Assembly (NCBI GenBank): GCA_051876105.1
Contig: JBJEHN010000065.1
Location: 5,841-69,840, forward strand
DNA: 64,000 bases
From: Coriobacteriales bacterium
Lineage (GTDB): Bacteria; Actinomycetota; Coriobacteriia; Coriobacteriales; QAMH01
Direction: 5' to 3'
Shown: positions 5,790 through 54,605 of the stretch, in pieces
How the letters are laid out: every line of letters starts with the position of its first letter
Position numbering within the stretch: position 1 is the stretch's first letter
The notes under the pieces: model-generated
Databases searched by the model: none
What the model was told of the DNA's origin: nothing
What the model saw: only the letters and a program-made list of their open reading frames with translations
Position numbers and translations under genes: made by a program

Positions 5790-5965
5790 GATGTCGTGGC
5801 AGCTCTCCGCTGGTTGCGACAGTGCGCAGGATCTTCTCCTGCGCCCCAGGCCACCCCAGCCCGTTGGGAAGCGGGGGTGCCTTCGGCGGCTGTCCCTTTC
5901 GCCCCGGGCCTCCCTAAGCCCGTGCCGGGGGTACTGATGAGAGCCGCACCTCTACCACACGTACA
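5790..5965 (-). promoter_or_regulatory. Lysine riboswitch (L-box)
   Basis: The minus strand reads GTAGAGGTGCGG...AGTA...GGGAGG...GAAAGGGACAGCCGCCGAAGG...GGCTGGGG...CACTGTCGCAA. These are the conserved L-box blocks AGAGGUGC, GAAAGGG, GCCGAAG and CUGUC in the canonical order. Boundaries are approximate. Confidence 0.85.
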
Positions 5966-5974
5966 GATATGGAG

Positions 5975-6002
5975 ATTGTAGGGTGATTTCAACGCAGGTC
6001 AA
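5975..6002 (-). promoter_or_regulatory. Sigma-70-type promoter for the riboswitch-nhaC transcript
   Basis: Minus strand has TTGACC, a 16-nt spacer, then TACAAT. The predicted start is a few nt before the L-box. Confidence 0.6.
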
Positions 6003-34559: not shown

Positions 34560-34635
34560 TGGTGGAGGTAAGGGGGCTCGAACCCCTGACATCCAGCTTG
34601 CAAAGCTGGCGCTCTCCCAGCTGAGCTATACCCCC
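34560..34635 (-). tRNA. tRNA-Ala (anticodon TGC), CCA encoded
   Basis: Sequence GGGGGTATAGCTCAGCTGGGAGAGCGCCAGCTTTGCAAGCTGGATGTCAGGGGTTCGAGCCCCCTTACCTCCACCA. It folds as a cloverleaf with the G3:U70 identity pair. Confidence 0.95.
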
Positions 34636-34718: not shown

Positions 34719-34795
34719 TGGTGGGCCTTACAAGATTCGAACTTGTGACCTCACGATTATCAGTCGTGCGCTCTAGCCAACTGAGCTAAAGGCCC
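34719..34795 (-). tRNA. tRNA-Ile (anticodon GAT), CCA encoded
   Basis: Sequence GGGCCTTTAGCTCAGTTGGCTAGAGCGCACGACTGATAATCGTGAGGTCACAAGTTCGAATCTTGTAAGGCCCACCA. All four arms pair. Confidence 0.95.
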
Positions 34796-39772: not shown

Positions 39773-40951
39773 TCAGTAGCTGTGGCGGGTGCCCTCTATA
39801 GGGAGCTCGACCACCTGGGCCTGCGCAAGCAGCTCGGGTGAGAAGTAACCCAGGTTCGTGGTGGTGATGAAGGCTTGTGTGCTGCCTTCGATGAAGGCGG
39901 TGAGGGCGGTGCGGCGGGTTGCGTCGAGCTCGCTCATCACGTCGTCGAGCAGCAGCACCGGGTCCGTCCCGGCAAACTCGCGCACCAGCTCGACCTCGGC
40001 CAGCTTCCAGGCAAGCACGATGGTGCGCTGCTGCCCCTGCGACGCGAAGAGCCGCGCGTTGCGCCCGTTGATGAAGAATGCCAACTCGTCTTTGTGCGGC
40101 CCGACGAGGCTCGTCTTGCGCGAGAGCTCCTGCCCTGTAAGCAGCGCAGACCAGCGCGCGATGACCTCCTGCACCTGCTCCACGCCCAGCTCGAGCAGGT
40201 GGTCGGTCTGGCAGATGCTGCCCAGTCCGGGGATGTCGCCGCGCTGGTGGCCCCCGTCGTCGAAGCGCATCCAGCTTGGCAGGTAGAGGCAGCTCAGCTC
40301 CTCCCCCTCCACGAGCTGGGGGTAGATGCGCTCCATGTGCGCGGCCAGGCGCGAGAACAACCGCATTCGCTTGACGCACAGGCGCGCACCGTAGGCCGCC
40401 AGGCTCTCGTCCCAGCTCTCGAAGAGCGGGCCGACATGAACGCCCTCCTTCAGCAGCAGGTTGCGCTGGCGCAGGGCGCTCGCGTAGTCGGCCTTGAGGG
40501 CGCCGTAGCTCTTTGAGAGCTGCACACCCAGGCTGTCGAGCGCGTCGCGGCGCTGCGAGCTGGCCGCCTTGACGAGCTGGAGATGGTCGGGGATGAACAG
40601 CACGCTGGGGCAGGTGCCGCGCAGGGCGGCCGCCGTCTTCCTCTTGCCGTTGACCTCGTAATTGCGCTTGCCGCCGGCCGCCGTCATCCGGTGATCGACG
40701 ACGCGGTTTTGCGCCGGGTCCTCGAGCCGCGCGCTGATCGAGGCGCTGGCGGCGTCCCAGCTCACGACCTCGTCCCACGACGGCTTGCGGAACGACTCGC
40801 CAGCAGTGAGCAGCTGTATCGCCTCGATGATGTTGGTCTTGCCCACGGCGTTGGGCCCCACCAAGACGACCAGCGGGCCCAAGCCCGCCAGCTCGAGGCA
40901 GCTGTAGCCCCTGTACTCGCTGAAGCGTATCTCTGTGATGCTGAGTCCCAT
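39773..40951 (-). CDS. recF: DNA replication and repair protein RecF
   Basis: GPNAVGKTNIIEAI Walker A, GSQGQQRT-like signature SQGQQRTIVLA, and LLLDDVMSELD Walker B. Start is ATG 40951. Confidence 0.9.
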   Translation of the reverse strand: MGLSITEIRFSEYRGYSCLELAGLGPLVVLVGPNAVGKTNIIEAIQLLTAGESFRKPSWDEVVSWDAASASISARLEDPAQNRVVDHRMTAAGGKRNYEVNGKRKTAAALRGTCPSVLFIPDHLQLVKAASSQRRDALDSLGVQLSKSYGALKADYASALRQRNLLLKEGVHVGPLFESWDESLAAYGARLCVKRMRLFSRLAAHMERIYPQLVEGEELSCLYLPSWMRFDDGGHQRGDIPGLGSICQTDHLLELGVEQVQEVIARWSALLTGQELSRKTSLVGPHKDELAFFINGRNARLFASQGQQRTIVLAWKLAEVELVREFAGTDPVLLLDDVMSELDATRRTALTAFIEGSTQAFITTTNLGYFSPELLAQAQVVELPIEGTRHSY

Positions 40952-41061
40952 AGCACGTGATGATACAAGATGCTGCGCCGTGCGGCCCCTGCGCGCGCAA
41001 GCTGTGGGGGCAAGCGCGCCGCGCATGTAGTACCGTGTACCAAAGACGCTAAGGAGGCCCT

Positions 41062-41655
41062 ATGACAGAGTTGCGCAGCGGGGGAACAGACCTGGGCGGC
41101 GCCGTGCGCGAGCTGCTGGAGATCATCGAGCGCCGCAACCCCGAGGTGGTCGCCAGCGCGCGCAACTCCCGTGCCTGGGCCCAAGCGGCAGACGAGGCAC
41201 AGCGCTCCCACACCTGCGCCGTCTACACCGTCCCCGGCACAGGCGGCGCCGAGGTCGTGGTCTACGTCGACTCAAACATCTGGGCCACCGAGCTCAGCCT
41301 CCAAGGCGAGCTGCTGCGCCTGAAGATGAACATCGCCCTGCGCGATGCAGCAGAGCACGCCGGCACCTTCGACCCGCAGGCAGACAACGAGCGCGTCAAG
41401 AAGCTGAGGTTCGCCACCAGCCGCGAGCGCTACCGCAGCGCCCGCCCCGAAGACACGAGCACTGCCCAGCAACTGCTCGACGAGGGCATGCACTACGACG
41501 TCGAGCCCCTCCCCCTCACCCATGAGGAAGAGGCGCAGCTCGAGGCCCAGGCAGCCGCCATCGAGAACCCCCAGGTCCGCAAAGCCGCTCTAGAGGCCAT
41601 GAGGGCCGACGCCATGCTCAAGAAGGCGCTGTCGAACCAAAGCAAAGAAGCCTGA
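41062..41655 (+). CDS. DUF721 / DciA-like protein, encoded opposite to its neighbours
   Basis: VVYVDSNIWATELSLQGELLRLKMN resembles the DUF721 core (L.V.VDSS.WA.EL......L...LN). It lies in the dnaN/recF neighbourhood typical of this family. Confidence 0.6.
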   Translation: MTELRSGGTDLGGAVRELLEIIERRNPEVVASARNSRAWAQAADEAQRSHTCAVYTVPGTGGAEVVVYVDSNIWATELSLQGELLRLKMNIALRDAAEHAGTFDPQADNERVKKLRFATSRERYRSARPEDTSTAQQLLDEGMHYDVEPLPLTHEEEAQLEAQAAAIENPQVRKAALEAMRADAMLKKALSNQSKEA

Positions 41656-41666
41656 AGAAGGCGCTG

Positions 41667-42767
41667 TTAAGCGAGCCTCACAGGCATGGCCAGGTAGAGG
41701 AAGCTGTCGTCATCGGCAGCGTGGAGGGTGCCGGGCTTGAGGCTGCTCTGCAGCTTGATGAGCACGTCGCCCTCGACCGCCTGCAAGCCGTCGAGCAGGT
41801 ACTGGTGGTTGAAGGCGATCTCCATGCTCTCTCCTTCGACCTCGGCCGCGAGCGCAGCGCGGCTGGCACCTACGTCCTGGGTCTTGGCAGAGACGGTGAC
41901 CTTCTGCTCGTCAACGTCGAACGCAAAGCGCACCGGTGTGTGCGCTTGAGCCAGGATGCTCACGCGCTTGACGGTTGCGATGAGCTCTTGCACGGGCAGC
42001 TTGATGGTGCAGGCAGAGTCCTTGGGCAACAGCTGCTTGTAGTTGGGGTAGGTGCCCTCGATCTTGCGGCTGACGAAGGTGCATGCACCGAAGCTGAACA
42101 CGACCTGGTTCTCGGAGAAGGCGATGGTGATCGCCTCGTAGCCGCTGGCCATCTTCGTGACGTCCTCGAAGATGCGGCCCGGGATGATCGCCTGGAAGGG
42201 CTCGTACGGGTCGCCCTCCTCGATCAGCACGTCTGCCACAGCCAGGCGGTAGCTGTCTGTGGCGGCAAGGCGCACTGTGTCGTCCTCGACGGCGAAGAGT
42301 ATGCCGGTGAGGATGGCACGGCTCTCGTCGCGCGAGACGGCCTTGCCCACCTTGCGCACCGCGTCTGAGAGGCGCTTGGAAGGCAGCACCACCTTGGTGC
42401 TCGTCTCGACCTGCGGGAAGGCGGGGAAGTCCACTGGGTTCAGAGTGGAGAGGGTGAAGGCGCTGTCAAGGCAGCTGATGACGACCTGGTCTGCATCCGT
42501 GGCAACGGTGACCGCCGCGTCTGGCAGGGCCTTGGAGATGTCGCCGAAGAGCTTGCCCGGCACCACGGTGCGGCCCGGCTCCACGACGTCTGCCACGATG
42601 GAGTGGCGGATGGATATCTCCAGGTCTGTGGTCTGGAAGGTGACCGAGCTGTCCTCCGCGCTCACGAGGATGCCGCTGAGGATGGGCAGCGTGCTCCTGG
42701 ACGACATGCCCTTTGACACGATGTTCAGGACTTCGATGAGCTCGTCTTTCGCTATGTTGAACCTCAT
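41667..42767 (-). CDS. dnaN: DNA polymerase III beta sliding clamp
   Basis: MRFNIAKDELIEVLNIVSKGMSSRSTLPILSGILV and three-domain length (366 aa). Confidence 0.97.
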   Translation of the reverse strand: MRFNIAKDELIEVLNIVSKGMSSRSTLPILSGILVSAEDSSVTFQTTDLEISIRHSIVADVVEPGRTVVPGKLFGDISKALPDAAVTVATDADQVVISCLDSAFTLSTLNPVDFPAFPQVETSTKVVLPSKRLSDAVRKVGKAVSRDESRAILTGILFAVEDDTVRLAATDSYRLAVADVLIEEGDPYEPFQAIIPGRIFEDVTKMASGYEAITIAFSENQVVFSFGACTFVSRKIEGTYPNYKQLLPKDSACTIKLPVQELIATVKRVSILAQAHTPVRFAFDVDEQKVTVSAKTQDVGASRAALAAEVEGESMEIAFNHQYLLDGLQAVEGDVLIKLQSSLKPGTLHAADDDSFLYLAMPVRLA

Positions 42768-42800
42768 GGCGCTTGCCCCAATCCCGGTTTCCCGGCTCCT

Positions 42801-42850
42801 GTTATATATAAGACCTCTTATATAAATACATTTAGTAATAGTAATAAAGC
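42801..42850. other. AT-rich candidate DNA-unwinding element of oriC
   Basis: Sequence gttatatataagacctcttatataaatacatttagtaatagtaataaagc in an otherwise GC-rich context. It lies 34-83 bp upstream of the dnaN start, next to DnaA-box-like sites. Confidence 0.55.
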
Positions 42851-42851
42851 A

Positions 42852-43006
42852 GGTGGAAATGTGGAGGTGTGTGCGTCACCGCACGTCAGCCCCTGTTTTC
42901 CCATCAACAACGCTGTTGAAAACAGCCGAGCTCTCTCCACAGCCGCTTTTCCACAGTTTTCACCTTCTCACAGACGGCCAACATGTTCTCCACCAGCTTA
43001 TCCCCA
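42852..43006. other. oriC part 2: DnaA-box cluster in the dnaA-dnaN intergenic region
   Basis: TTTTCCACA at 42947-42955 and TTATCCCCA at 42998-43006 each have one mismatch to TTATCCACA. Weaker sites include ggtggaaat, tgtggaggt and ctctccaca. Confidence 0.6.
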
Positions 43007-43028
43007 GGGTGTGACACAGCTTGCTCCC

Positions 43029-44603
43029 TTACGAGCGCGCGCGGATGCGGTCGTTCAGCTCGGCGATCTGGTCGTACAACAGGCGGTTGTCCTGCTGGTC
43101 GCTCTCTATCTTGTTCACGCTGTGCATGACCGTGGTGTGGTCGCGGTTGCCGAACTTCTTGCCGATGCTCTCGAGGCTTTCGTCTGTGAGGTAGCGGCAC
43201 AGGTAGATGGCGATGTGGCGCGGCAGGGTGATGCCCTTGCTGCGCTTGCTGCCGATGATGTCCTCGTGGCTCACCTGGAAGTAGCGCTCGACCTCCGCCT
43301 GGATGGTCGAGATGCTCACCTTGGTGTCGCGCAGCGCGGGGAAGAAGTCCTGCAGTATCTCCTGCGCCTCGTCGACCGTGATCTCCGGTTTGCGGGTGAG
43401 GTTCATGTTGCCGATGAGGCGGGTGATCGCACCCTCCATCTCGCGGATGTTGGTGGAGGCGCTTTCCGCCAGCCAACTGAGCACGTTGTCTGGGATCACA
43501 CCGCAGAAGGTGGTTGCCTGCTGCACGCGCAGGTAGCTGTTCTTGATGATGGCCAGGCGGGTCTCGTAGTCGGGCGGCTTGATGTCTGCCAGCAGGCCGC
43601 TCACAAAGCGGCTGCGCATGCGGTCGTCCATGTCGATGTCCTTGGGCGCGCGGTCTGCGCTGAGCACGACCTGCTTTGCCTGGCTGGTCATCTCGTTGAA
43701 GATGTTGAAGAGCTGGTTGATGGTCTCGTCCTTGCCTTCCAAGTACTGTACGTCGTCAACCAGCAGGACGTCGGCGTGGTGGTACTTGGTGTTGAAGCCG
43801 CCCCAGCTGTTGCGCTGCGTTGCCTCGACGTAGTCGTTGAGGAACTCGTTGGCGCTCACATAGCAGGTGGCCATGTTGGGGTAGTTCTGGCCGATGTAGT
43901 TGGCGATGGAGACCAGCAGGTGGGTCTTGCCCAAGCCGCTCGAGCCGTAGATGAACAGCGGGTTGTAGACGATGCCCGGCTGCTCGGCCACGGCCAGCGC
44001 CGCCCCGCGGGCGAACTCGTTGCTCTTGCCCACGACGAAGGTCTCGAACGTGCACTTGGAGAACAGCGCCTCGTTGCCGGTGCGGCGGGATTGCTGCCCG
44101 GGCTGTTGCGCGGGCTGTGCTTGCTGCACCTGCGCCTGGCCGCCTGCTCCGGGCAGGTCGCTCATCTGCACATAGGTGTTCATCCACTCGGGCACGGCGG
44201 GGCTTTCCGCCGGCGCAGGCTGCGGGTCGAGGTTGGGTATGGCGAACACGGGGTTCTGCTCGGGTGCGGGGGCCTTCTGGCTTGCCACTTGCACGGCTGC
44301 TGCCGCTGGGTTGCCCTGCGGCGCGGTGGGCTGCGGAGCGGGCGCGGCTTGGGCGGCGGGGTTGCCGGCGATCTGCACGGTGTAGGCAGCGCCGCTTGCC
44401 GCCAGCGCGGCAGCAGAGATCTCTCCCAGGTAGTTGCGGCGCACCCAGCTCTCGACCTGCTCGTTGTTGGTCAGGAGGATGAACTGGTCGCCGAAGACGC
44501 CCAGCGGGTGGAGCTGCCCTAGGAAGAAGTTCTTCGGGTCGTCCTCCCCCACCCCGTCGAGCATGATGGCCAGCGTCTTTGCCCAGAGCTCGTCTTTGTC
44601 CAT
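43029..44603 (-). CDS. dnaA: Chromosomal replication initiator DnaA
   Basis: AAA+ GSSGLGKTHLL, LLVDDVQYL, and C-terminal HTH RDHTTVMHSVNKI. A Q/P/A-rich domain II linker is present. Confidence 0.97.
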   Translation of the reverse strand: MDKDELWAKTLAIMLDGVGEDDPKNFFLGQLHPLGVFGDQFILLTNNEQVESWVRRNYLGEISAAALAASGAAYTVQIAGNPAAQAAPAPQPTAPQGNPAAAAVQVASQKAPAPEQNPVFAIPNLDPQPAPAESPAVPEWMNTYVQMSDLPGAGGQAQVQQAQPAQQPGQQSRRTGNEALFSKCTFETFVVGKSNEFARGAALAVAEQPGIVYNPLFIYGSSGLGKTHLLVSIANYIGQNYPNMATCYVSANEFLNDYVEATQRNSWGGFNTKYHHADVLLVDDVQYLEGKDETINQLFNIFNEMTSQAKQVVLSADRAPKDIDMDDRMRSRFVSGLLADIKPPDYETRLAIIKNSYLRVQQATTFCGVIPDNVLSWLAESASTNIREMEGAITRLIGNMNLTRKPEITVDEAQEILQDFFPALRDTKVSISTIQAEVERYFQVSHEDIIGSKRSKGITLPRHIAIYLCRYLTDESLESIGKKFGNRDHTTVMHSVNKIESDQQDNRLLYDQIAELNDRIRARS

Positions 44604-44606
44604 GGC

Positions 44607-45542
44607 TTACACCTGCTCTCTCAATGCTGCCAGACCCAGCTGGGTCAGCATGCGCTTGCCCTTGTGGTTCTCGTCGCTCATCAGCATCCCCGCCTTCTGG
44701 AGCTTGTCGAGGACGCGGTACGCCGTTGCGGTGGGGATGCCCATGCGGTTGGTGATGTCTGTGGGGCCCACGCTCATCTCCGTTGCCAGCGCCAGGATGT
44801 CGAGCTCGCGCTGGTCGAGCGGGACGGCGCCGGCTGCGGGGGTGAGAGCTGCAGGCGTGGTGGCCGCTCGCTGGGCGGTGCCGTAGGCAGGCTGCTGCCA
44901 CTGCGGTTGGGCCGGCTGCTGCCATGCGCTGCCCGGCGCCTGCATCTGCTGCTGCCACATGCCGGCGTCTTGCTGCGGGTAGGGCTGCGCGTACTGCGCT
45001 GCCTGCGTGGGCACCTGCACGACCGGGCTCTCCTGGTAGACGACCGGCTGCTGCTGTATGCCTGCGTTGCGGTCGACAGCGATGGTCACCACCGCGCCGT
45101 CGCGTATGTTGTCCTCTATGACCAGCCGCCCGTTGGAGAACTTGAGGTACTCCTTCACGATGGGCAGCCCGCTGCCTACGCCGCGGATATAGCCCTTCAT
45201 CTCTGCGGTTGCGCTCGAGAAGCCGGGCAGCTGGACGCGGTCCTTGTTCTCGATGCCAGGGCCCTGGTCTGCAAAGCGTATCGTGCAGCCGCGGTCCAGG
45301 ATGCTGACCGTTATCTCCTTGAACTGGGCGTGGATGAAGTTCTCCGAGACCTCGCGGATGACGGTGTAGGGGATCACCCCACCCTGCTGGGTCGCCAACT
45401 CGTAGGTGGTCGAGGCGATGCTCTCTATATAGTGTGAGACCTCGTCTGGCTGGATCTCCACGATGCGCGGCGCAGAGAGAAGATCGTCGTAGACGGCGAT
45501 GCGCGCCACCTGCGTTGCGGTAACAGGCTCTTCCTGGGGCAT
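44607..45542 (-). CDS. GHKL (HATPase_c-like) ATPase domain fused to a winged-helix DNA-binding domain via a Gln/Pro-rich linker; function unknown
   Basis: N-box-like REVSENFIHA, G1 DQGPGI, G2 GVGSGLP. C-terminal wHTH GPTDITNRMGIPTATAYRVLDKLQKAGML. ATG 45542 lies 4 nt after GAGGAGG. The TAA stop ends 3 nt before the dnaA ATG. Confidence 0.75.
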   Translation of the reverse strand: MPQEEPVTATQVARIAVYDDLLSAPRIVEIQPDEVSHYIESIASTTYELATQQGGVIPYTVIREVSENFIHAQFKEITVSILDRGCTIRFADQGPGIENKDRVQLPGFSSATAEMKGYIRGVGSGLPIVKEYLKFSNGRLVIEDNIRDGAVVTIAVDRNAGIQQQPVVYQESPVVQVPTQAAQYAQPYPQQDAGMWQQQMQAPGSAWQQPAQPQWQQPAYGTAQRAATTPAALTPAAGAVPLDQRELDILALATEMSVGPTDITNRMGIPTATAYRVLDKLQKAGMLMSDENHKGKRMLTQLGLAALREQV

Positions 45543-45575
45543 CGTTCCTCCTCTCGCGTGGCTTGGGTGTGAAAA

Positions 45576-45604
45576 AGTGTAGTTTTCCACAGAGAAATTC
45601 ACAA
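45576..45604 (-). promoter_or_regulatory. Candidate promoter of the GHKL-wHTH/dnaA transcript, with a DnaA box in its spacer
   Basis: Minus strand has TTGTGA, a 17-nt spacer, then TACACT. The spacer contains TGTGGAAAA (plus-strand TTTTCCACA at 45583-45591). Confidence 0.4.
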
Positions 45605-46053
45605 TCGTTTTCCCGAAAAAACTCCAGCCCTTGCTTCTCGTTTCATTTCATTTCAGGTTTCCGCATATATGAAATACCTATCTACCTGCTGTTTTCAATG
45701 TTTTCCACATTACTTTCCACCTCTGTTGAAAACTATGGAGAAAACTGAAACAAGTGTGGAAACTGTGGTTGAAAGATGAGAAAGGCAATCGAGAAGCTGC
45801 TTGGGTACACACTTGAACAGCGGATTTGGGTACTTATCCACATTTCAGATTATTTCAAGAGGCGGAATCCACTGAAAACACCCCCTGTTTCAAGCTGTCT
45901 CTTTTCACAAAGTGCTGAAAAATCGTCCTGAAATAGTTCTGAAACGAGTTTTCCCCAATACAGATCTCGCAGATTCACCCGCTGTGGTAAAAGTTCACAG
46001 AGTTTTCCCCAGCAAACCCGTGTTTAACAACAGGGTTTTCCCCGTTTTCCACA
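45583..46053. other. oriC part 1: DnaA-box cluster between the dnaA operon and rpmH
   Basis: Perfect TTATCCACA at 45834-45842. TTTTCCACA at 45583-45591, 45701-45709 and 46045-46053. Several two-mismatch sites (ctttccacc, tgtggaaac, tgtggtaaa). About 700 bp are non-coding. Confidence 0.75.
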
Positions 46054-46154
46054 TTTTGGGAAGTTTTTTCCCACTTGCCCTTGCATTGGGTGATAGCCCG
46101 TGCAGGTGAACAGATACGAACAACCCTGCACAAAACGTCGTTCGCATGCGGTTC

Positions 46155-46183
46155 TTGACGATTTTTGTGAAGGCAAATATAAT
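46155..46183 (+). promoter_or_regulatory. rpmH promoter
   Basis: TTGACG, a 17-nt spacer, then TATAAT, about 55 nt upstream of the rpmH ATG. Confidence 0.7.
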
Positions 46184-46238
46184 CTCGGGGCTTATGTAAT
46201 CAATTAAGGGGTTCGTTTACCCTAGGAGGAATGCCGCA

Positions 46239-46373
46239 ATGAAACGTACTTATCAGCCTAACAAGCGTCGTCGCGCCAAGACCCATGGCTTCCGTGCCCG
46301 CATGGCTACCCGCGGTGGCCGTGCTGTTCTGAAGGCCCGCCGCGCAAAGGGCCGCAAGCGCCTGACCGTCTAG
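46239..46373 (+). CDS. rpmH: 50S ribosomal protein L34 (44 aa; below the ORF-track length cutoff)
   Basis: Hand translation gives [51 protein letters not shown] lies 8 nt upstream. Confidence 0.97.
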
Positions 46374-48952: not shown

Positions 48953-48968
48953 AGGTTTCACGTGAAAC
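48953..48968. promoter_or_regulatory. parS site (one mismatch), overlapping the rsmG start codon
   Basis: GGTTTCACGTGAAACA compared with the consensus TGTTNCACGTGAAACA. Confidence 0.75.
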
Positions 48969-49687
48969 AGACCGAAGAAAAGAGGGCCGCCCTTGCAGCG
49001 GCCCTTGGTCGCTTGGAGCTTGAGCTTAGCCAGCAGGTGCAAGATCAGCTCCTGAGCTTCCTCGACCTGGTAGTAGAGAAGAACAAGGTCCTCAACCTCA
49101 CACGCATCACATCATTCGATGATGCTGTAGTTCTGCACCTTGAAGACTCGCTTTCCATACTTGAGACCTTCCGTCATACCTCCGGGGAGTTTCTAGACAT
49201 CGGCACTGGTGGAGGCTTCCCAGGTATACCGATGGGGATCACCACCGAGCGCAGGGGTGTGCTCCTGGATTCAGTGAAGAAGAAGGCTGTTGCTGTTGGA
49301 GAGTTCATAGAGCAGCTTGGATTGCAGGAGCGGCTGAAGGCTGTGGGTATGCGCAGTGAAGAGCTGGCAGCAGAGATGCCTGGGCACTTCGGTGTGGTGA
49401 CAGCGCGAGCTGTCTCATCTCTGCCGGCGGTTGAAGAGCTTGCCACTCCCCTACTCAAGCACGGTGGGCACCTGATTGCCATGCGCGGCCCTGACTCTCC
49501 TGAAGATATTGAACAAGGTAAGGCTGCTGCAAAGCTACTTGGGCTCACACTTATGGAGCGTTTAGAGTTCACTATTGGTCCGGAGCGGGAATATCACAGG
49601 TCTCTCTGCGTGTTTGAGAAAACCGGTAAGCCTAAAGTTAAGCTCCCCCGTCATCCCGGCTACGCGTCAAAACGTCCCTTGGTGTAG
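48962..49687 (+). CDS. rsmG: 16S rRNA (guanine527-N7)-methyltransferase RsmG/GidB
   Basis: NLTRITSFDDAVVLHLEDSL...LDIGTGGGFPGIP SAM motif. GTG start lies inside parS. Confidence 0.9.
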   Translation: MKQTEEKRAALAAALGRLELELSQQVQDQLLSFLDLVVEKNKVLNLTRITSFDDAVVLHLEDSLSILETFRHTSGEFLDIGTGGGFPGIPMGITTERRGVLLDSVKKKAVAVGEFIEQLGLQERLKAVGMRSEELAAEMPGHFGVVTARAVSSLPAVEELATPLLKHGGHLIAMRGPDSPEDIEQGKAAAKLLGLTLMERLEFTIGPEREYHRSLCVFEKTGKPKVKLPRHPGYASKRPLV

Positions 49688-49910
49688 CTGTTTGAAGCGA
49701 ATTACTGGCTATGGTAGATGCACTAGCGGCGCTTCTGAGCCGCTAGTGCTATGTGTAGATAACACTTAAACCACCACATAGCATGTCAATTAGAGAAGGC
49801 GAAGGTTGAATCCTTAGAGGTTTAATGGCAAAAATGGTGCTGCTTACCCATAATAAAGCTGTTGGGTCTTCCCCTTCTCGTTCTCCTGAACACAGCGAAT
49901 GCCCCCTTCT

Positions 49911-50054
49911 GTCATTCTGAGCGCAGCGAGCCTCAGCGAGCGAAGTCGAAGGATCTCCAGCGGAGCCGCGAGACCGCAGCGCGGGTGCACGCGTCTCGCA
50001 CATCACCTCGAGATCCTTTGACTCCGGCACCAAGGCCCCTATGCTTAAGGTGAC
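49911..50054. repeat. MITE-like repeat, family B, subfamily B2, copy R4
   Basis: Sequence gtcattctgagcgcagcgagcctcagcgagcgaagtcgaaggatctccagcggagccgcgagacc...cctcgagatcctttgactcc...gcttaaggtgac. Confidence 0.75.
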
Positions 50055-50510
50055 AGGATGAAGACATGAAAGACTGTAAGTTGACTACATTCTGTTGTGG
50101 TTGCTCATGAAACTCATCGACTGCAGCCTTCTAGGTACTCCACCTTAGGTGATGGAAGAAGGCGACTCAGCAGCTTTGCTCTGATCCAAAACAATCCCTT
50201 CAAACAGAACGATCTAAGAAGAAGCCTGCCTAGTATCAGTGATACAAGCCATTGAGTCATAGATATATATACATTGTATAGATAAGTTTACATAAACGAC
50301 ATTAAAATCATGCATATAAGATATACATATACACTATCGATTTAGCTGCTTTGAATTACTAACACCCGTCGGGCGATCCTCTCACTTTATAAAAGTAAGG
50401 CGAGTTCGTTCAAGTCATTCAACAAGAACTAAACACAGCTAATAATGTAATCCTCTAAAGTTAGTTATAAGCGTTCTTAACTTGAATAGAGCTGTTGTCT
50501 CAACCTTTTC

Positions 50511-50634
50511 TCATCATCTTGAGCATAAAGAGCGCTAGCAAGTGGAGTTAAAGAATCTCGAGTTGAGCTGCGAGGCCGCAGCTCAACTCGAGATTCTTTA
50601 ACTACTACGTAAATGCGCCTCCGCTTAAGATGAC
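50511..50634. repeat. MITE-like repeat, family B variant, copy R5, with a 27-bp perfect inner stem
   Basis: Left arm 50546-50572 is agttaaagaatctcgagttgagctgcg. Loop is aggc. Right arm 50577-50603 is its exact complement. Outer ends are tcatcatcttgagc / gcttaagatgac. Confidence 0.8.
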
Positions 50635-50679
50635 GAGAATGAGAGCTCTGTAGTGGTCCTATAGCTCCACAGTGATGAT

Positions 50680-50695
50680 TGTTTCACGTGAAACA
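50680..50695. promoter_or_regulatory. parS site (perfect), centre of a 28-bp perfect palindrome at 50674-50701
   Basis: Sequence gatgatTGTTTCACGTGAAACAatcatc. Confidence 0.85.
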
Positions 50696-50756
50696 ATCAT
50701 CAAAACTTTTGGCTTTGTTTACCTTCAATGGTGCCAATAAAACCACAAGCCGGACC

Positions 50757-50933
50757 GTCATTTAGACCGGAGGCGCGTAGCGCTGTTGTGGAGAAATCTC
50801 AGGTTGAGCCGCGAGACTGTATCCGGAGCCACGGTCTACAAGCTCCATCTGAGATTTCTCCACGCTTGCACTAACGTTTGCTTGGTCGAAATGACGGCAG
50901 ATGGGGTGCTTTCGCTCGTGTGGTCGAAATGAC
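50757..50933. repeat. MITE-like repeat, family B, copy R6 (terminal arm duplicated)
   Basis: Sequence gtcatttagaccggaggcgcgtagcgctgttgtggagaaatctcaggttgagccgcgagac...catctgagatttctccacgcttgcactaacgtttgcttggtcgaaatgac. A second ggtcgaaatgac lies 38 nt later. Confidence 0.8.
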
Positions 50934-51095
50934 GTGTGGAGCCCACAAATAAGGAATAATGCAGACAATTATTGGATGTGTAAATCCATAATGGTGCTAA
51001 CGAGGTAAAGCCCTGAGCTGACAACTATAACAGCGGGGCAGCGATGCCTACCAATCCGTCAGTTCGACCGAAAGGGCGCTAGCGGACCTGAGATT

Positions 51096-51237
51096 GTCAT
51101 TTCAACTGGAGGTGTGTAGCACTCTAGTGCAGAAATTACAGGATGAGCAATAAGACGGTGCTTCGAGCTGTAGTTCTCTACCCCACTTAGAATTCTTCAC
51201 TTACTCACTCACTAACGTTCGCTTGCCTAAAATATCG
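51096..51237. repeat. Degenerate AT-shifted MITE-like repeat, family B, copy R7
   Basis: Sequence gtcatttcaactggaggtgtgtagcactctagtgcagaaattacaggatgagcaataagacgg...cttagaattcttcacttactcactcactaacgttcgcttgcctaaaat. Confidence 0.55.
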
Positions 51238-51455
51238 GTAAAGGCTGCGCTGTTATTCAAAAGGTCAAAACAATATTCAAAGAGATCCATTACGGATTTC
51301 CAAAGCCACTAATTATGTAGTAGCCATAGCAATCGCAAAATATAGTAATCCAGGAAGTGTACACAGTATAAGGCGAGCACTGCAATAACCCTTTGAATCG
51401 AATGGAAGTGTAGAAAATAGTTTTTAAACATGGTATTCAAAAAAAATAAACAGAT

Positions 51456-51471
51456 TGTTTCACGTGAAACA
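51456..51471. promoter_or_regulatory. parS site (perfect), about 70 bp upstream of parA
   Basis: Sequence TGTTTCACGTGAAACA. Confidence 0.85.
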
Positions 51472-51538
51472 AAACTGTATCTAGCTATGACAGAAGAATG
51501 CACATATACTCACATCAGCACGCTAAGAAAGGAGAATC

Positions 51539-53336: not shown

Positions 53337-54242
53337 TTATTTAGCGGGGAAGAACTCAGAGAACTCGTGGTTGGAAAGGCCGGGGAAGCAAGTATCGAAG
53401 ATCTCGCACAGCTCGCCCTTGGTGTCGTGCACGAAGCGCGAGCCCTTGCGCGAAAGCGTAACGCTTGCCGCGCGGCGGTCCTTGCTGTTGCAGGCCCTGT
53501 TGATGAGGTTGCGGTCTGTAAGCGTGCGGATGGAGAGGGATGCAACGTTGGGGCGGATGTTGATGAACGCGCTCAGGTCCTTGAGCCTCATGCCCTTGTT
53601 GTTGTTCCCAAGCACGCGCAGGATGCGGGCCTCGTTGGGGGAGAGGTCCATCGTGCGCTCGAACTCGGTCATCTTGGAGATGAAGTACGTGATGCTCTCA
53701 ACGATGAGGACGCGGGTGATGTGCTGGATAATCTCGTCCTGGCTCTGGTCGAGATGGAGGTCGCTTGCGATCCGCGTGGCGATGGAGGTGATGTCTTCCT
53801 CATCGGTATCGAAGAACACGTGCGAAGAGGCTGGCAACAACAGCTCGTTGAGCTCCTCGATCTTCTCAGGGAAGGGCGCAGGGCAGTCAACTTCAAACGC
53901 CTTGCGCACAGCGGGGATGAAGTTGGGGGTGATGGCTATGCCCTTTTCGGTGATGTTGATGTAGACGTTGCGGCGGTCGAGGTCGTCGTAGGTGCGGCTG
54001 ATGTAGCCGTCATCGACCAGATGGTTGACGGCAGCGGTGATAGTGCTGGGCTTGAGGAACAGCGAGGTGCCTACGTTGCCGATGGGGTGAGGCTCATGCG
54101 TGCCGATGTAGAAGAGGATGCGGGACTGGGTGATGTTGAGGCCGCAGGACTCTTTGACGTTCTTGTCGATGCTGTTGTTGAGACGTATGAAGTGGTTGAT
54201 CCAGTCGAGACGTGACCCGATGGACAGGTCTGCTGATGCCAT
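53337..54242 (-). CDS. Tandem (two-domain) MarR-type winged-helix transcriptional regulator
   Basis: There are two MarR-like units. The first is ITQSRILFYIG...LKPSTITAAVNHLVDDGYISRTYDDLDRRNVYINITEKG. The second is EARILRVLG...IRPNVASLSIRTLTDRNLINRACNSKDRRAASVTLSRKG. Start ATG 54242 follows GGGGGAG. Confidence 0.7.
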   Translation of the reverse strand: MASADLSIGSRLDWINHFIRLNNSIDKNVKESCGLNITQSRILFYIGTHEPHPIGNVGTSLFLKPSTITAAVNHLVDDGYISRTYDDLDRRNVYINITEKGIAITPNFIPAVRKAFEVDCPAPFPEKIEELNELLLPASSHVFFDTDEEDITSIATRIASDLHLDQSQDEIIQHITRVLIVESITYFISKMTEFERTMDLSPNEARILRVLGNNNKGMRLKDLSAFINIRPNVASLSIRTLTDRNLINRACNSKDRRAASVTLSRKGSRFVHDTKGELCEIFDTCFPGLSNHEFSEFFPAK

Positions 54243-54605
54243 AGCGCTCCCCCTTGGTTGCAAGCTCTCACGAATAATAAGGATAAACAAGCTGCTCAAC
54301 GCGCTTTCGTTGCAATAGAAAGTGTAATACGTCAAGAGTAGTAATGAATAAAACAAATGAAATAATCGTGAAGAATAACTTAATCAAAAACACAACTAGT
54401 AAATAAAATACTCAATTCAAGGAATTAGGAGAATTTAATATCAATAATGATTCACACTACAGTCAATAAAACCGCAGGTAAACGAGCTAATTCAGAATTA
54501 TAGTAAAAAGAGAATAAACAACAAAACAACCAACAGATAGTAAAAGGCGTAGCTTGACACTGCGCTCCAACGAGAGATTAATTACTCAAATTAACCATAT
54601 GTAAA

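Follow-up and report, generated by a model that had tools for sequence, protein, structure and literature searches.

A histidine-kinase-type ATPase joined to a winged helix is encoded directly upstream of dnaA in Coriobacteriia and is a candidate regulator of replication initiation

Introduction

What is the function of a gene that stands immediately upstream of dnaA, between the two DnaA-box clusters of an origin region? The question is raised by a stretch of 64,000 nucleotides from a Coriobacteriales bacterium (assembly GCA_051876105.1, contig JBJEHN010000065.1, positions 5,841 to 69,840; the whole stretch is called the window below). There, an open reading frame (ORF) for a protein of 311 amino acids lies on the minus strand at 44607..45542, stop codon included. 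Its product combines an ATP-binding domain of the histidine-kinase (HK) type with a winged helix-turn-helix (wHTH) and is referred to as the ATPase-wHTH protein.

Control of DnaA is understood in a few model bacteria only, and the known regulators are lineage-specific. For the Coriobacteriia, which include the medically relevant gut genera Eggerthella, Collinsella, Slackia and Adlercreutzia, no described initiation regulator was found in the literature. Literature searches on dnaA, oriC, signature proteins and essential genes of Coriobacteriia or Eggerthella, and on HATPase_c combined with a winged helix and dnaA, did not turn up any account of the ATPase-wHTH gene or its linkage to dnaA. In all related Coriobacteriia loci that were examined here, the gene proved to be in synteny with dnaA. 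We propose, with a probability of roughly 0.45, that its product regulates dnaA and the origin region as a one-component protein whose binding to DNA depends on its ATP state.

Results

Linkage to dnaA

The ATPase-wHTH gene extends from the ATG at 45542-45540 to the TAA at 44609-44607. A Shine-Dalgarno sequence, GAGGAGG (45547..45553, minus strand), is followed by 4 nt (AACG) and the start codon. A longer reading from a GTG at 45602 would yield 331 amino acids; the ATG was preferred because the alignments of homologues start there and because of the strong Shine-Dalgarno sequence. Three nucleotides (GCC) lie between the stop codon and the ATG of dnaA at 44603. Start codon, stop codon and distance to dnaA agree with the original prediction, which had been made from the DNA letters alone. 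Judged by its reading frame, by 2502 homologues at E<=1e-3 and by two Pfam matches above gathering score, the ORF is a real gene.

A profile search over 1.84 billion cluster representatives (50% identity clusters) revealed a compact family, of which 364 clusters reached E<=1e-30 and 493 reached E<=1e-10. Those source names that contain an organism are all from Coriobacteriia (Coriobacteriales, Coriobacteriaceae, Collinsella, Arabiibacter), and the record names of family members are generic, e.g. 'ATP-binding protein'. At 146 of 146 testable loci from Eggerthellaceae, Collinsella, divergent clades and environmental contigs, dnaA was located immediately 3' on the same strand. This applied to 78 of 78 loci from 80 species-representative genomes (the remaining two contigs end first), to all 65 of 80 metagenome contigs that had room for the next gene, to Collinsella intestinalis and to two divergent subgroups. 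The metagenome contigs had been retrieved by means of degenerate motif patterns and originate from gut and JGI samples, the latter presumed to be non-human from their Ga/JGI record names. The record of the complete Collinsella sp. zg1085 genome, which conventionally begins at dnaA, ends with the ATPase-wHTH gene. The expectation that orthologues are always placed 5' of dnaA was thus borne out, and homologues scattered over unrelated loci, which had been named as the outcome that would speak against it, were not seen.

A look-up anchored on rpmH in one species (the source of L001, one of the closest relatives) found the gene in ten of ten places. In nine of them the adjoining gene was annotated as dnaA, and in the tenth the adjoining ORF was cut and had no annotation. 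No second, dnaA-unlinked copy was found in any collection searched (genomes, metagenomes, plasmids, phages). On plasmids and phages no family member was found, just generic HATPase_c matches at 29-33% identity.

The ATPase-wHTH/dnaA pair was inverted as a unit in 33 loci (20 genome and 13 metagenome loci). There, the genes upstream of the pair are dnaN-recF, encoded on the other strand, and those downstream are rpmH-rnpA-yidC, encoded on the strand of the pair. The inverted genome loci are L017, L033, L037, L039, L045, L048, L051, L053, L054, L057-L064, L075, L076 and L080; examples of the 13 metagenome loci are L090, L098 and L150. The breakpoints of the inversion are found within the two intergenic regions that are rich in DnaA boxes.

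Sequence constraint

Identity to the respective window proteins was determined at 125 loci. The median was 68.5% for the ATPase domain as compared with 46% for DnaA domains III-IV, 45% for DnaN, 44% for YidC, 43% for RecF and 39% for the wHTH where it was alignable. The identity of the ATPase domain exceeded that of DnaN in 125 of 125 loci and that of DnaA domains III-IV in 113 of 125.

Protein architecture

The protein consists of a complete HK-type ATP-binding (CA) domain, a disordered linker of variable length and a winged helix similar to those of MarR, IclR and Csa3. The CA domain has the Bergerat fold and comprises residues ~10-160 (45063..45515, minus strand), as delimited by motifs, an AlphaFold2 model and Foldseek. 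It is followed by a Gln/Pro-rich low-complexity linker, residues ~161-240 (44823..45062, minus strand), which is predicted to be disordered (predicted local distance difference test score, pLDDT, <50). The C-terminal wHTH occupies residues ~241-311 (44610..44822, minus strand; matches to HTH_IclR, TrmB and MarR, pLDDT 91-96). The Bergerat motifs REVSENFIHA (residues 63-72), DQGPGI (92-97) and GVGSGLP (121-127), the linker and the wHTH are all located where they had been predicted. Pfam matches above gathering score were obtained for HATPase_c (residues 59-157; 37 bits vs. 26.4) and HTH_IclR (residues 251-290; 23.7 bits vs. 22), while the TrmB (23.4 bits vs. 25.6), MarR (19.1 bits vs. 24.6) and related wHTH models narrowly missed it. 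Among 32 aligned family members, HATPase_c was detected in 32 and HTH_IclR in 29.

The ATP site looks intact and, by its motifs, is of the histidine-kinase type. Invariant in alignments of 32 and 81 sequences are E67, N68 and H71 (N box), D92, G94 and G96 (G1 box) and G121, G123 and G125 (G2 box); for F108 (F box) invariance holds in the alignment of 32, and E64 (N box) is shared by at least 90% of the 81 sequences. Further invariant positions of these alignments are situated outside the ATP site, namely in the N-terminal RIAxYDD strand and at several Tyr residues, and therefore suggest that the N-terminal domain has a conserved macromolecular partner.

A fold search with the full-length model was uninformative for the ATPase part because lid and linker were modelled with low confidence, and it was rerun with the N-terminal domain alone. 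The AlphaFold2 model of residues 1-165 (predicted template-modelling score 0.78) matched best, among PDB structures, the catalytic domains of EnvZ, HK853 and CpxA (E from 5e-7); CheA, PhoQ and pyruvate dehydrogenase kinase (PDK2, PDK4) ranked lower. In sequence profiles, KinB and HK853 were the best solved relatives. The earlier assignment to the GHKL ATPases therefore held with respect to the fold, and the Pfam and fold matches narrowed the subtype to the histidine-kinase type as opposed to that of GyrB, MutL and Hsp90. With a domain of this type, the plausible chemistry moves to ATP sensing or protein phosphorylation. The last 70 residues were modelled as wHTH with pLDDT >90, and Foldseek matched them to the MarR-family proteins ZitR and AdcR (root-mean-square deviation ~2 A), including complexes with DNA. 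Profile comparison of the wHTH yielded, as best match, the wHTH of Csa3/CARF3 regulators.

Family proteins are 235-624 residues long, and in the sequences inspected most of the difference is accounted for by the linker. As noted for P0172, P0177, P0170, P0258 and P0263, some members have N-terminal low-complexity extensions (Q/P/Y/G-rich) of 150-240 residues or linkers of ~400 residues, and a further subgroup begins with a conserved M(A)xDFYPFVD motif.

Origin setting

In the window, dnaA (43029..44603, minus strand; 524 amino acids, Bac_DnaA and Bac_DnaA_C matches) is followed on the same strand by dnaN (41667..42767) and recF (39773-41026). Divergent from the ATPase-wHTH/dnaA pair is rpmH (46239..46373, plus strand), after which come rnpA, yidD, yidC, jag and rsmG. 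DnaA boxes are clustered upstream of the pair, in the intergenic region between rpmH and the ATPase-wHTH gene (45543..46238; 13 boxes at <=2 mismatches), and again in the dnaA-dnaN intergenic region (42768..43028; 5 boxes at <=2 mismatches). The exact sequence TTWTCCACA occurs five times in the 64-kb window vs. 0.27 times expected, and all five copies are confined to these two regions. The gene had indeed been placed between an upstream box cluster and dnaA in the original prediction. Beside the boxes in the dnaA-dnaN spacer there is an AT-rich stretch (~42801-42848) with a TAG/TAA trio-like run, which is likely to be the DNA unwinding element. We infer a Bacillus-like bipartite origin with the unwinding element between dnaA and dnaN.

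Upstream of the ATPase-wHTH gene a promoter-like sequence, TTGTGA-17-TACACT, is found at 45576..45604 (minus strand), with a DnaA box, TGTGGAAAA (45591-45583), inside its spacer. The site and the box in its spacer are kept in the closest relatives (L001-L005). It had been regarded as the only candidate for the pair; its sequence and the enclosed box were confirmed, but a consensus scan, in which it scores 8/12 and falls below listing, did list a second promoter-like site at 45878-45849. No promoter-like or terminator-like site was detected by the scan between the ATPase-wHTH gene and dnaA in the window, and no Rfam RNA family was found in or near the locus. In the organism of the window, the dnaA transcription unit begins with the ATPase-wHTH gene, which is preceded by the promoter-like site with the embedded DnaA box.

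The repeats found in 45543-46238, direct as well as inverted, all belong to the (A)GTTTTCC(A/C)CA type. Upstream regions of relatives were compared by k-mer footprinting on 72 non-redundant sequences. DnaA-box k-mers dominated (TTTTCCAC in 56 of 72 regions vs. 0.7 expected), and the recurrent k-mers were limited to DnaA-box variants (TTTTCCAC, TTTTCAAC) and one extra motif, TGAATAAA. In some Eggerthellaceae, TGAATA/TATTCA is present in 5-7 copies in the 350 nt that precede the ATPase-wHTH gene (L033 at about 5840-6000, L039, L020, L047, L043, L008, L009, L018). In L033 the copies form direct repeats ~10-11 bp apart, with ~0.4 copies expected by chance. As an operator of the wHTH this array was rejected, since its occurrence showed no clear correlation with the recognition helix and the counts also follow AT content; it could consist of weak DnaA boxes or of sites for another protein.

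Spacing to dnaA

The distance between the ATPase-wHTH gene and dnaA differs between clades. The gap to the dnaA start is 3 nt in the window, in L001-L005 and in L164, 9-10 nt in L007, L011-L016 and L025, and 2-28 nt in L066-L072, where the value depends on the estimator. In most Eggerthellaceae loci it is 40-300 nt and often carries TAnAAT-like -10 elements and one or two TTTTCCACA boxes. Paired TTTTCCACA boxes that flank or precede a TATACT/TATAAT-like element were noted in L010, L043, L053, L058, L059, L063, L064, L076 and L078-L080, which suggests that in these relatives dnaA has a promoter of its own that would be controlled by DnaA boxes. Stoichiometric coupling across a few nucleotides, as originally proposed, hence applies to the clades with gaps of 2-28 nt and fails in most Eggerthellaceae. 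As tight coupling is clade-limited, it is adjacency and orientation that are conserved, and co-translation is not the conserved principle.

Other features of the window

Between dnaN and recF, an ORF for a DciA-like protein of 197 amino acids is present on the opposite strand (41062-41655, plus strand); its PF05258 match of 22.3 bits is slightly below the gathering score of 24. In Collinsella (L082) DciA is encoded after recF on the same strand, and in L002-L004 the dnaN-recF interval is too short for any gene. Between rsmG and parA/parB, a gene-free AT-rich spacer of 1.85 kb (49688-51538; GC ~0.43) harbours two perfect parS sites, TGTTTCACGTGAAACA, at 50680-50695 and 51456-51471, together with three copies of a long-hairpin repeat (50546-50603 with perfect 27-nt arms, 49941-50026 and 50788-50863). 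A third parS with one mismatch (48954-48969) overlaps the start of rsmG. Just past parB, on the other strand, a protein of 339 amino acids with two tandem MarR-type winged-helix domains is encoded (53337-54356, minus strand). The window further contains a lysine riboswitch (5792-5962, minus strand; 83 bits) and two tRNA genes (34563-34635 and 34722-34795, minus strand).

Discussion

Position and conservation make the ATPase-wHTH protein a strong candidate regulator of replication initiation. If it is the ATP-dependent DNA-binding regulator proposed here, binding of ATP to the CA-like domain, probably accompanied by dimerisation, would alter the engagement of DNA near the origin by the tethered winged helices. 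This in turn would set transcription of the dnaA operon, assembly of DnaA on the upstream box cluster, or both. DnaA may feed back on the shared promoter via the box in its spacer, and, with the gene located at the origin beside dnaA, the protein would be made where it acts.

Several points weigh against this proposal. Binding of the protein to the origin region or to DnaA is a prediction from position and conservation. The recognition helix is far less conserved than the ATPase domain and differs between clades; it is thus a poor fit with one fixed operator. An operator other than the DnaA boxes was found neither by the repeat search in 45543-46238 nor, over the 72 upstream regions, by k-mer footprinting. 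A shared transcript is not universal because dnaA has its own promoter-like region in most Eggerthellaceae loci. All linkage loci were gathered via the ATPase-wHTH gene itself and therefore represent only those Coriobacteriia that carry it. Finally, HK-type CA domains devoid of a DHp domain are, in the known cases of SpoIIAB, RsbW and PDK, protein kinases or partner binders and not ligand sensors.

The last point leads to the main rival, a doubtful but substantial one, according to which the protein is a kinase or partner switch tethered to DNA: it would bind, and perhaps phosphorylate on Ser, Thr or Tyr, a protein partner, most plausibly DnaA or another initiation factor, with wHTH and linker acting as anchor only. 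A complete CA domain that is accompanied neither by a phospho-acceptor domain nor by a conserved His before the N box favours this explanation, as do PDK2 and PDK4 among the fold matches and the conserved E64, four residues before N68 as in anti-sigma kinases. The whole surface of the N-terminal domain is highly conserved, including the RIAxYDD strand and several invariant Tyr, which suggests a protein partner. A variable wHTH and linker would suit a mere tether and explain why the head is conserved far above the DNA-binding tail. One member even bears the automatic JGI name 'anti-sigma regulatory factor (Ser/Thr protein kinase)'. On the other hand, HATPase_c_2 was not matched at E<=1, SpoIIAB and RsbW are not among the PDB or fold matches listed, STAS and sigma-factor genes do not adjoin the gene in loci with listed called genes, and the sequence names no substrate.

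It is unlikely that the protein works as a transcription factor or ATP-binding protein of an ordinary kind, with a task unrelated to replication, and is kept in place by common descent and by the dependence of dnaA on its promoter. In the clades with gaps of 2-28 nt dnaA apparently needs the promoter of the upstream gene, and rearrangements that split the pair would therefore be lethal whatever the protein does. Moreover, with all members in a single bacterial class, the shared position may be inherited. Yet the position is kept in 146 of 146 loci, including many Eggerthellaceae in which dnaA has its own promoter-like region, and it is kept across two arrangements of the flanking genes. That the N-terminal domain surpasses DnaA and DnaN in conservation indicates a core function, and no copy unlinked to dnaA turned up in the collections searched.

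Least probable is an origin organiser with the layout of MutL/MORC and the role of ParB/Noc, whose ATP-driven dimerising GHKL head, flexible linker and DNA-binding tail would bridge or clamp origin DNA for positioning or segregation: the head-linker-tail layout with linkers of up to ~400 residues, the constant location at the origin (in the window 3-7 kb from parS sites and parAB) and a variable recognition helix, which implies the weak sequence specificity of a structural DNA binder, are outweighed by a domain of HK rather than MutL/MORC type that is not followed by an S5-fold transducer, by a canonical ParABS system that is already there, and by the lack of any special need for such a protein to be encoded next to dnaA itself.

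We therefore retain the ATP-dependent regulator of dnaA and the origin region as the preferred interpretation. A broader formulation, in which the family is a new class of initiation regulator, i.e. an HK-like ATPase and possibly protein kinase that is tethered by its winged helix to the origin, is universal and probably essential in Coriobacteriia, and ties the activity of DnaA or the expression of dnaA at the origin directly to the ATP status of the cell or to a phosphorylation signal, is put forward tentatively. The constant linkage to dnaA, the joint inversion and an ATPase domain conserved above DnaA provide a concrete single-gene entry point to the control of initiation in this class. 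Should the link be functional, the protein would represent a new architecture of origin regulator, composed of an HK-type ATP module and a wHTH, and a case of an HK catalytic domain employed outside His-Asp phosphotransfer. Should it not be functional, the gene would still be a signature of the class, with a core function yet to be assigned.

How does the protein compare with known systems? Family and PDB searches yielded no curated family and no solved homologue, and, as anticipated, Pfam, NCBIfam, PDB and PADLOC searches did not assign the protein with confidence to any characterised family that has a different role. The ATPase-wHTH proteins are thus an uncharacterised family made of known domains in a conserved and suggestive context.

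With sensor histidine kinases (EnvZ, HK853, CpxA, KinB) the protein shares the CA fold and the N, G1, F and G2 motifs at equal spacing. In contrast to them it has no sensor or membrane part, and its output is a covalently tethered wHTH. No DHp/HisKA domain was matched by Pfam at E<=1 in the 311-residue protein. Residues 10-160 are wholly taken up by the CA fold in the model, and H37, the one His that precedes the N box, is not conserved. A response-regulator gene is not located nearby, as rpmH and dnaA adjoin the ATPase-wHTH gene in every locus with listed called genes, and in a tblastn survey homologues of rpmH- and dnaA-type neighbours flank the gene likewise. Classification as a two-component sensor kinase was therefore rejected: the CA domain is there, but DHp domain and cognate regulator are not.

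SpoIIAB/RsbW and the mitochondrial kinases PDK/BCKDK resemble the protein in having an HK-type ATP domain of ~150 residues without a His-phosphotransfer domain and an acidic residue four positions ahead of the Asn of the N box, and PDK is among the fold matches; unlike these proteins, the ATPase-wHTH protein bears a DNA-binding domain and is linked to dnaA. HATPase_c_2 gave no Pfam match (E<=1), and TIGR01925 (spIIAB) matched at E=0.02 with 14.8 bits vs. a cut-off of 135. SpoIIAB/RsbW structures were absent from the 32 PDB sequence matches listed and from the top 50 fold matches, and neither the window nor the loci with listed called genes contain adjoining STAS or sigma-factor genes. Classification as an anti-sigma Ser kinase was rejected for lack of a HATPase_c_2 match, of a spIIAB match above cut-off and of such partner genes.

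MutL- and MORC-type GHKL proteins are similar in that a GHKL head is connected by a proline-rich disordered linker to a C-terminal functional domain, and the segment from the N box to G1 gave weak MutL matches, far below cut-off. They differ in that G2 box and lid of the ATPase-wHTH protein are of the HK type and its C-terminus is a wHTH and not a dimerisation or endonuclease domain. Membership in the GHL ATPases (GyrB, MutL, Hsp90, MORC, Topo VI-B) was rejected: there is no S5-fold transducer, and a disordered linker follows residue ~160. A GHKL protein of anti-phage defence was likewise rejected. PADLOC matched the wHTH alone (Csa3/CARF3 type), and the gene has a fixed core locus and was not found on plasmids or phages.

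A single solved structure spans both parts of the full-length model, that of Corynebacterium diphtheriae DIP2311 (PDB 3LMM; AlbA_2, HATPase_c_4 and wHTH; function unknown), which aligns over the ATPase-like part and the wHTH. It ranked 16th with a probability of 0.99, but the match is weak (TM-score 0.34, 12% identity). Moreover, the ATPase-wHTH protein contains no AlbA_2 domain and no HATPase_c_4 match, and no linkage to dnaA is known for DIP2311.

Closer parallels exist in logic. Csa3 is a transcription factor in which a sensor domain for a nucleotide ligand (CARF) is fused to a wHTH. The ATPase-wHTH protein follows the same principle of joining a nucleotide-binding sensor domain to a wHTH, and a C-terminal winged helix is also shared with MarR, IclR and TrmB. 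Unlike all four it would sense by a Bergerat-fold ATP-binding domain and has a long disordered linker. The dimerisation helices of MarR, the IclR effector domain, the TrmB C-terminal domain and CARF are absent; ~70 residues match, and the rest is linker and ATPase. A full MarR, IclR or TrmB factor was rejected accordingly, since the wHTH is accompanied by none of the second domains specific to these families.

Known regulators of DnaA or oriC are Soj/ParA, YabA, SirA, DnaD, Hda, DiaA/HobA and SeqA, and the origin-binding response regulators are Spo0A, CtrA, MtrA, HP1021 and AdpA. They are alike in the role proposed here, i.e. nucleotide- or signal-dependent action on DnaA or origin DNA; Soj is alike as an ATP-switch protein, and MtrA, CtrA and Spo0A as wHTH or HTH proteins at the origin. 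No Pfam or NCBIfam match places the protein in the YabA, SirA, Soj, Hda, DiaA/HobA, SeqA or DnaD families, the sole trace being DnaD_N at E=0.076 (13.6 bits vs. a gathering score of 27). To our knowledge, no known regulator has a gene that invariably adjoins dnaA on its 5' side throughout a class. By analogy, the ATPase-wHTH protein would work most like a nucleotide-sensing one-component regulator of the Csa3 kind or like an ATP-switch regulator of DnaA of the Soj kind.

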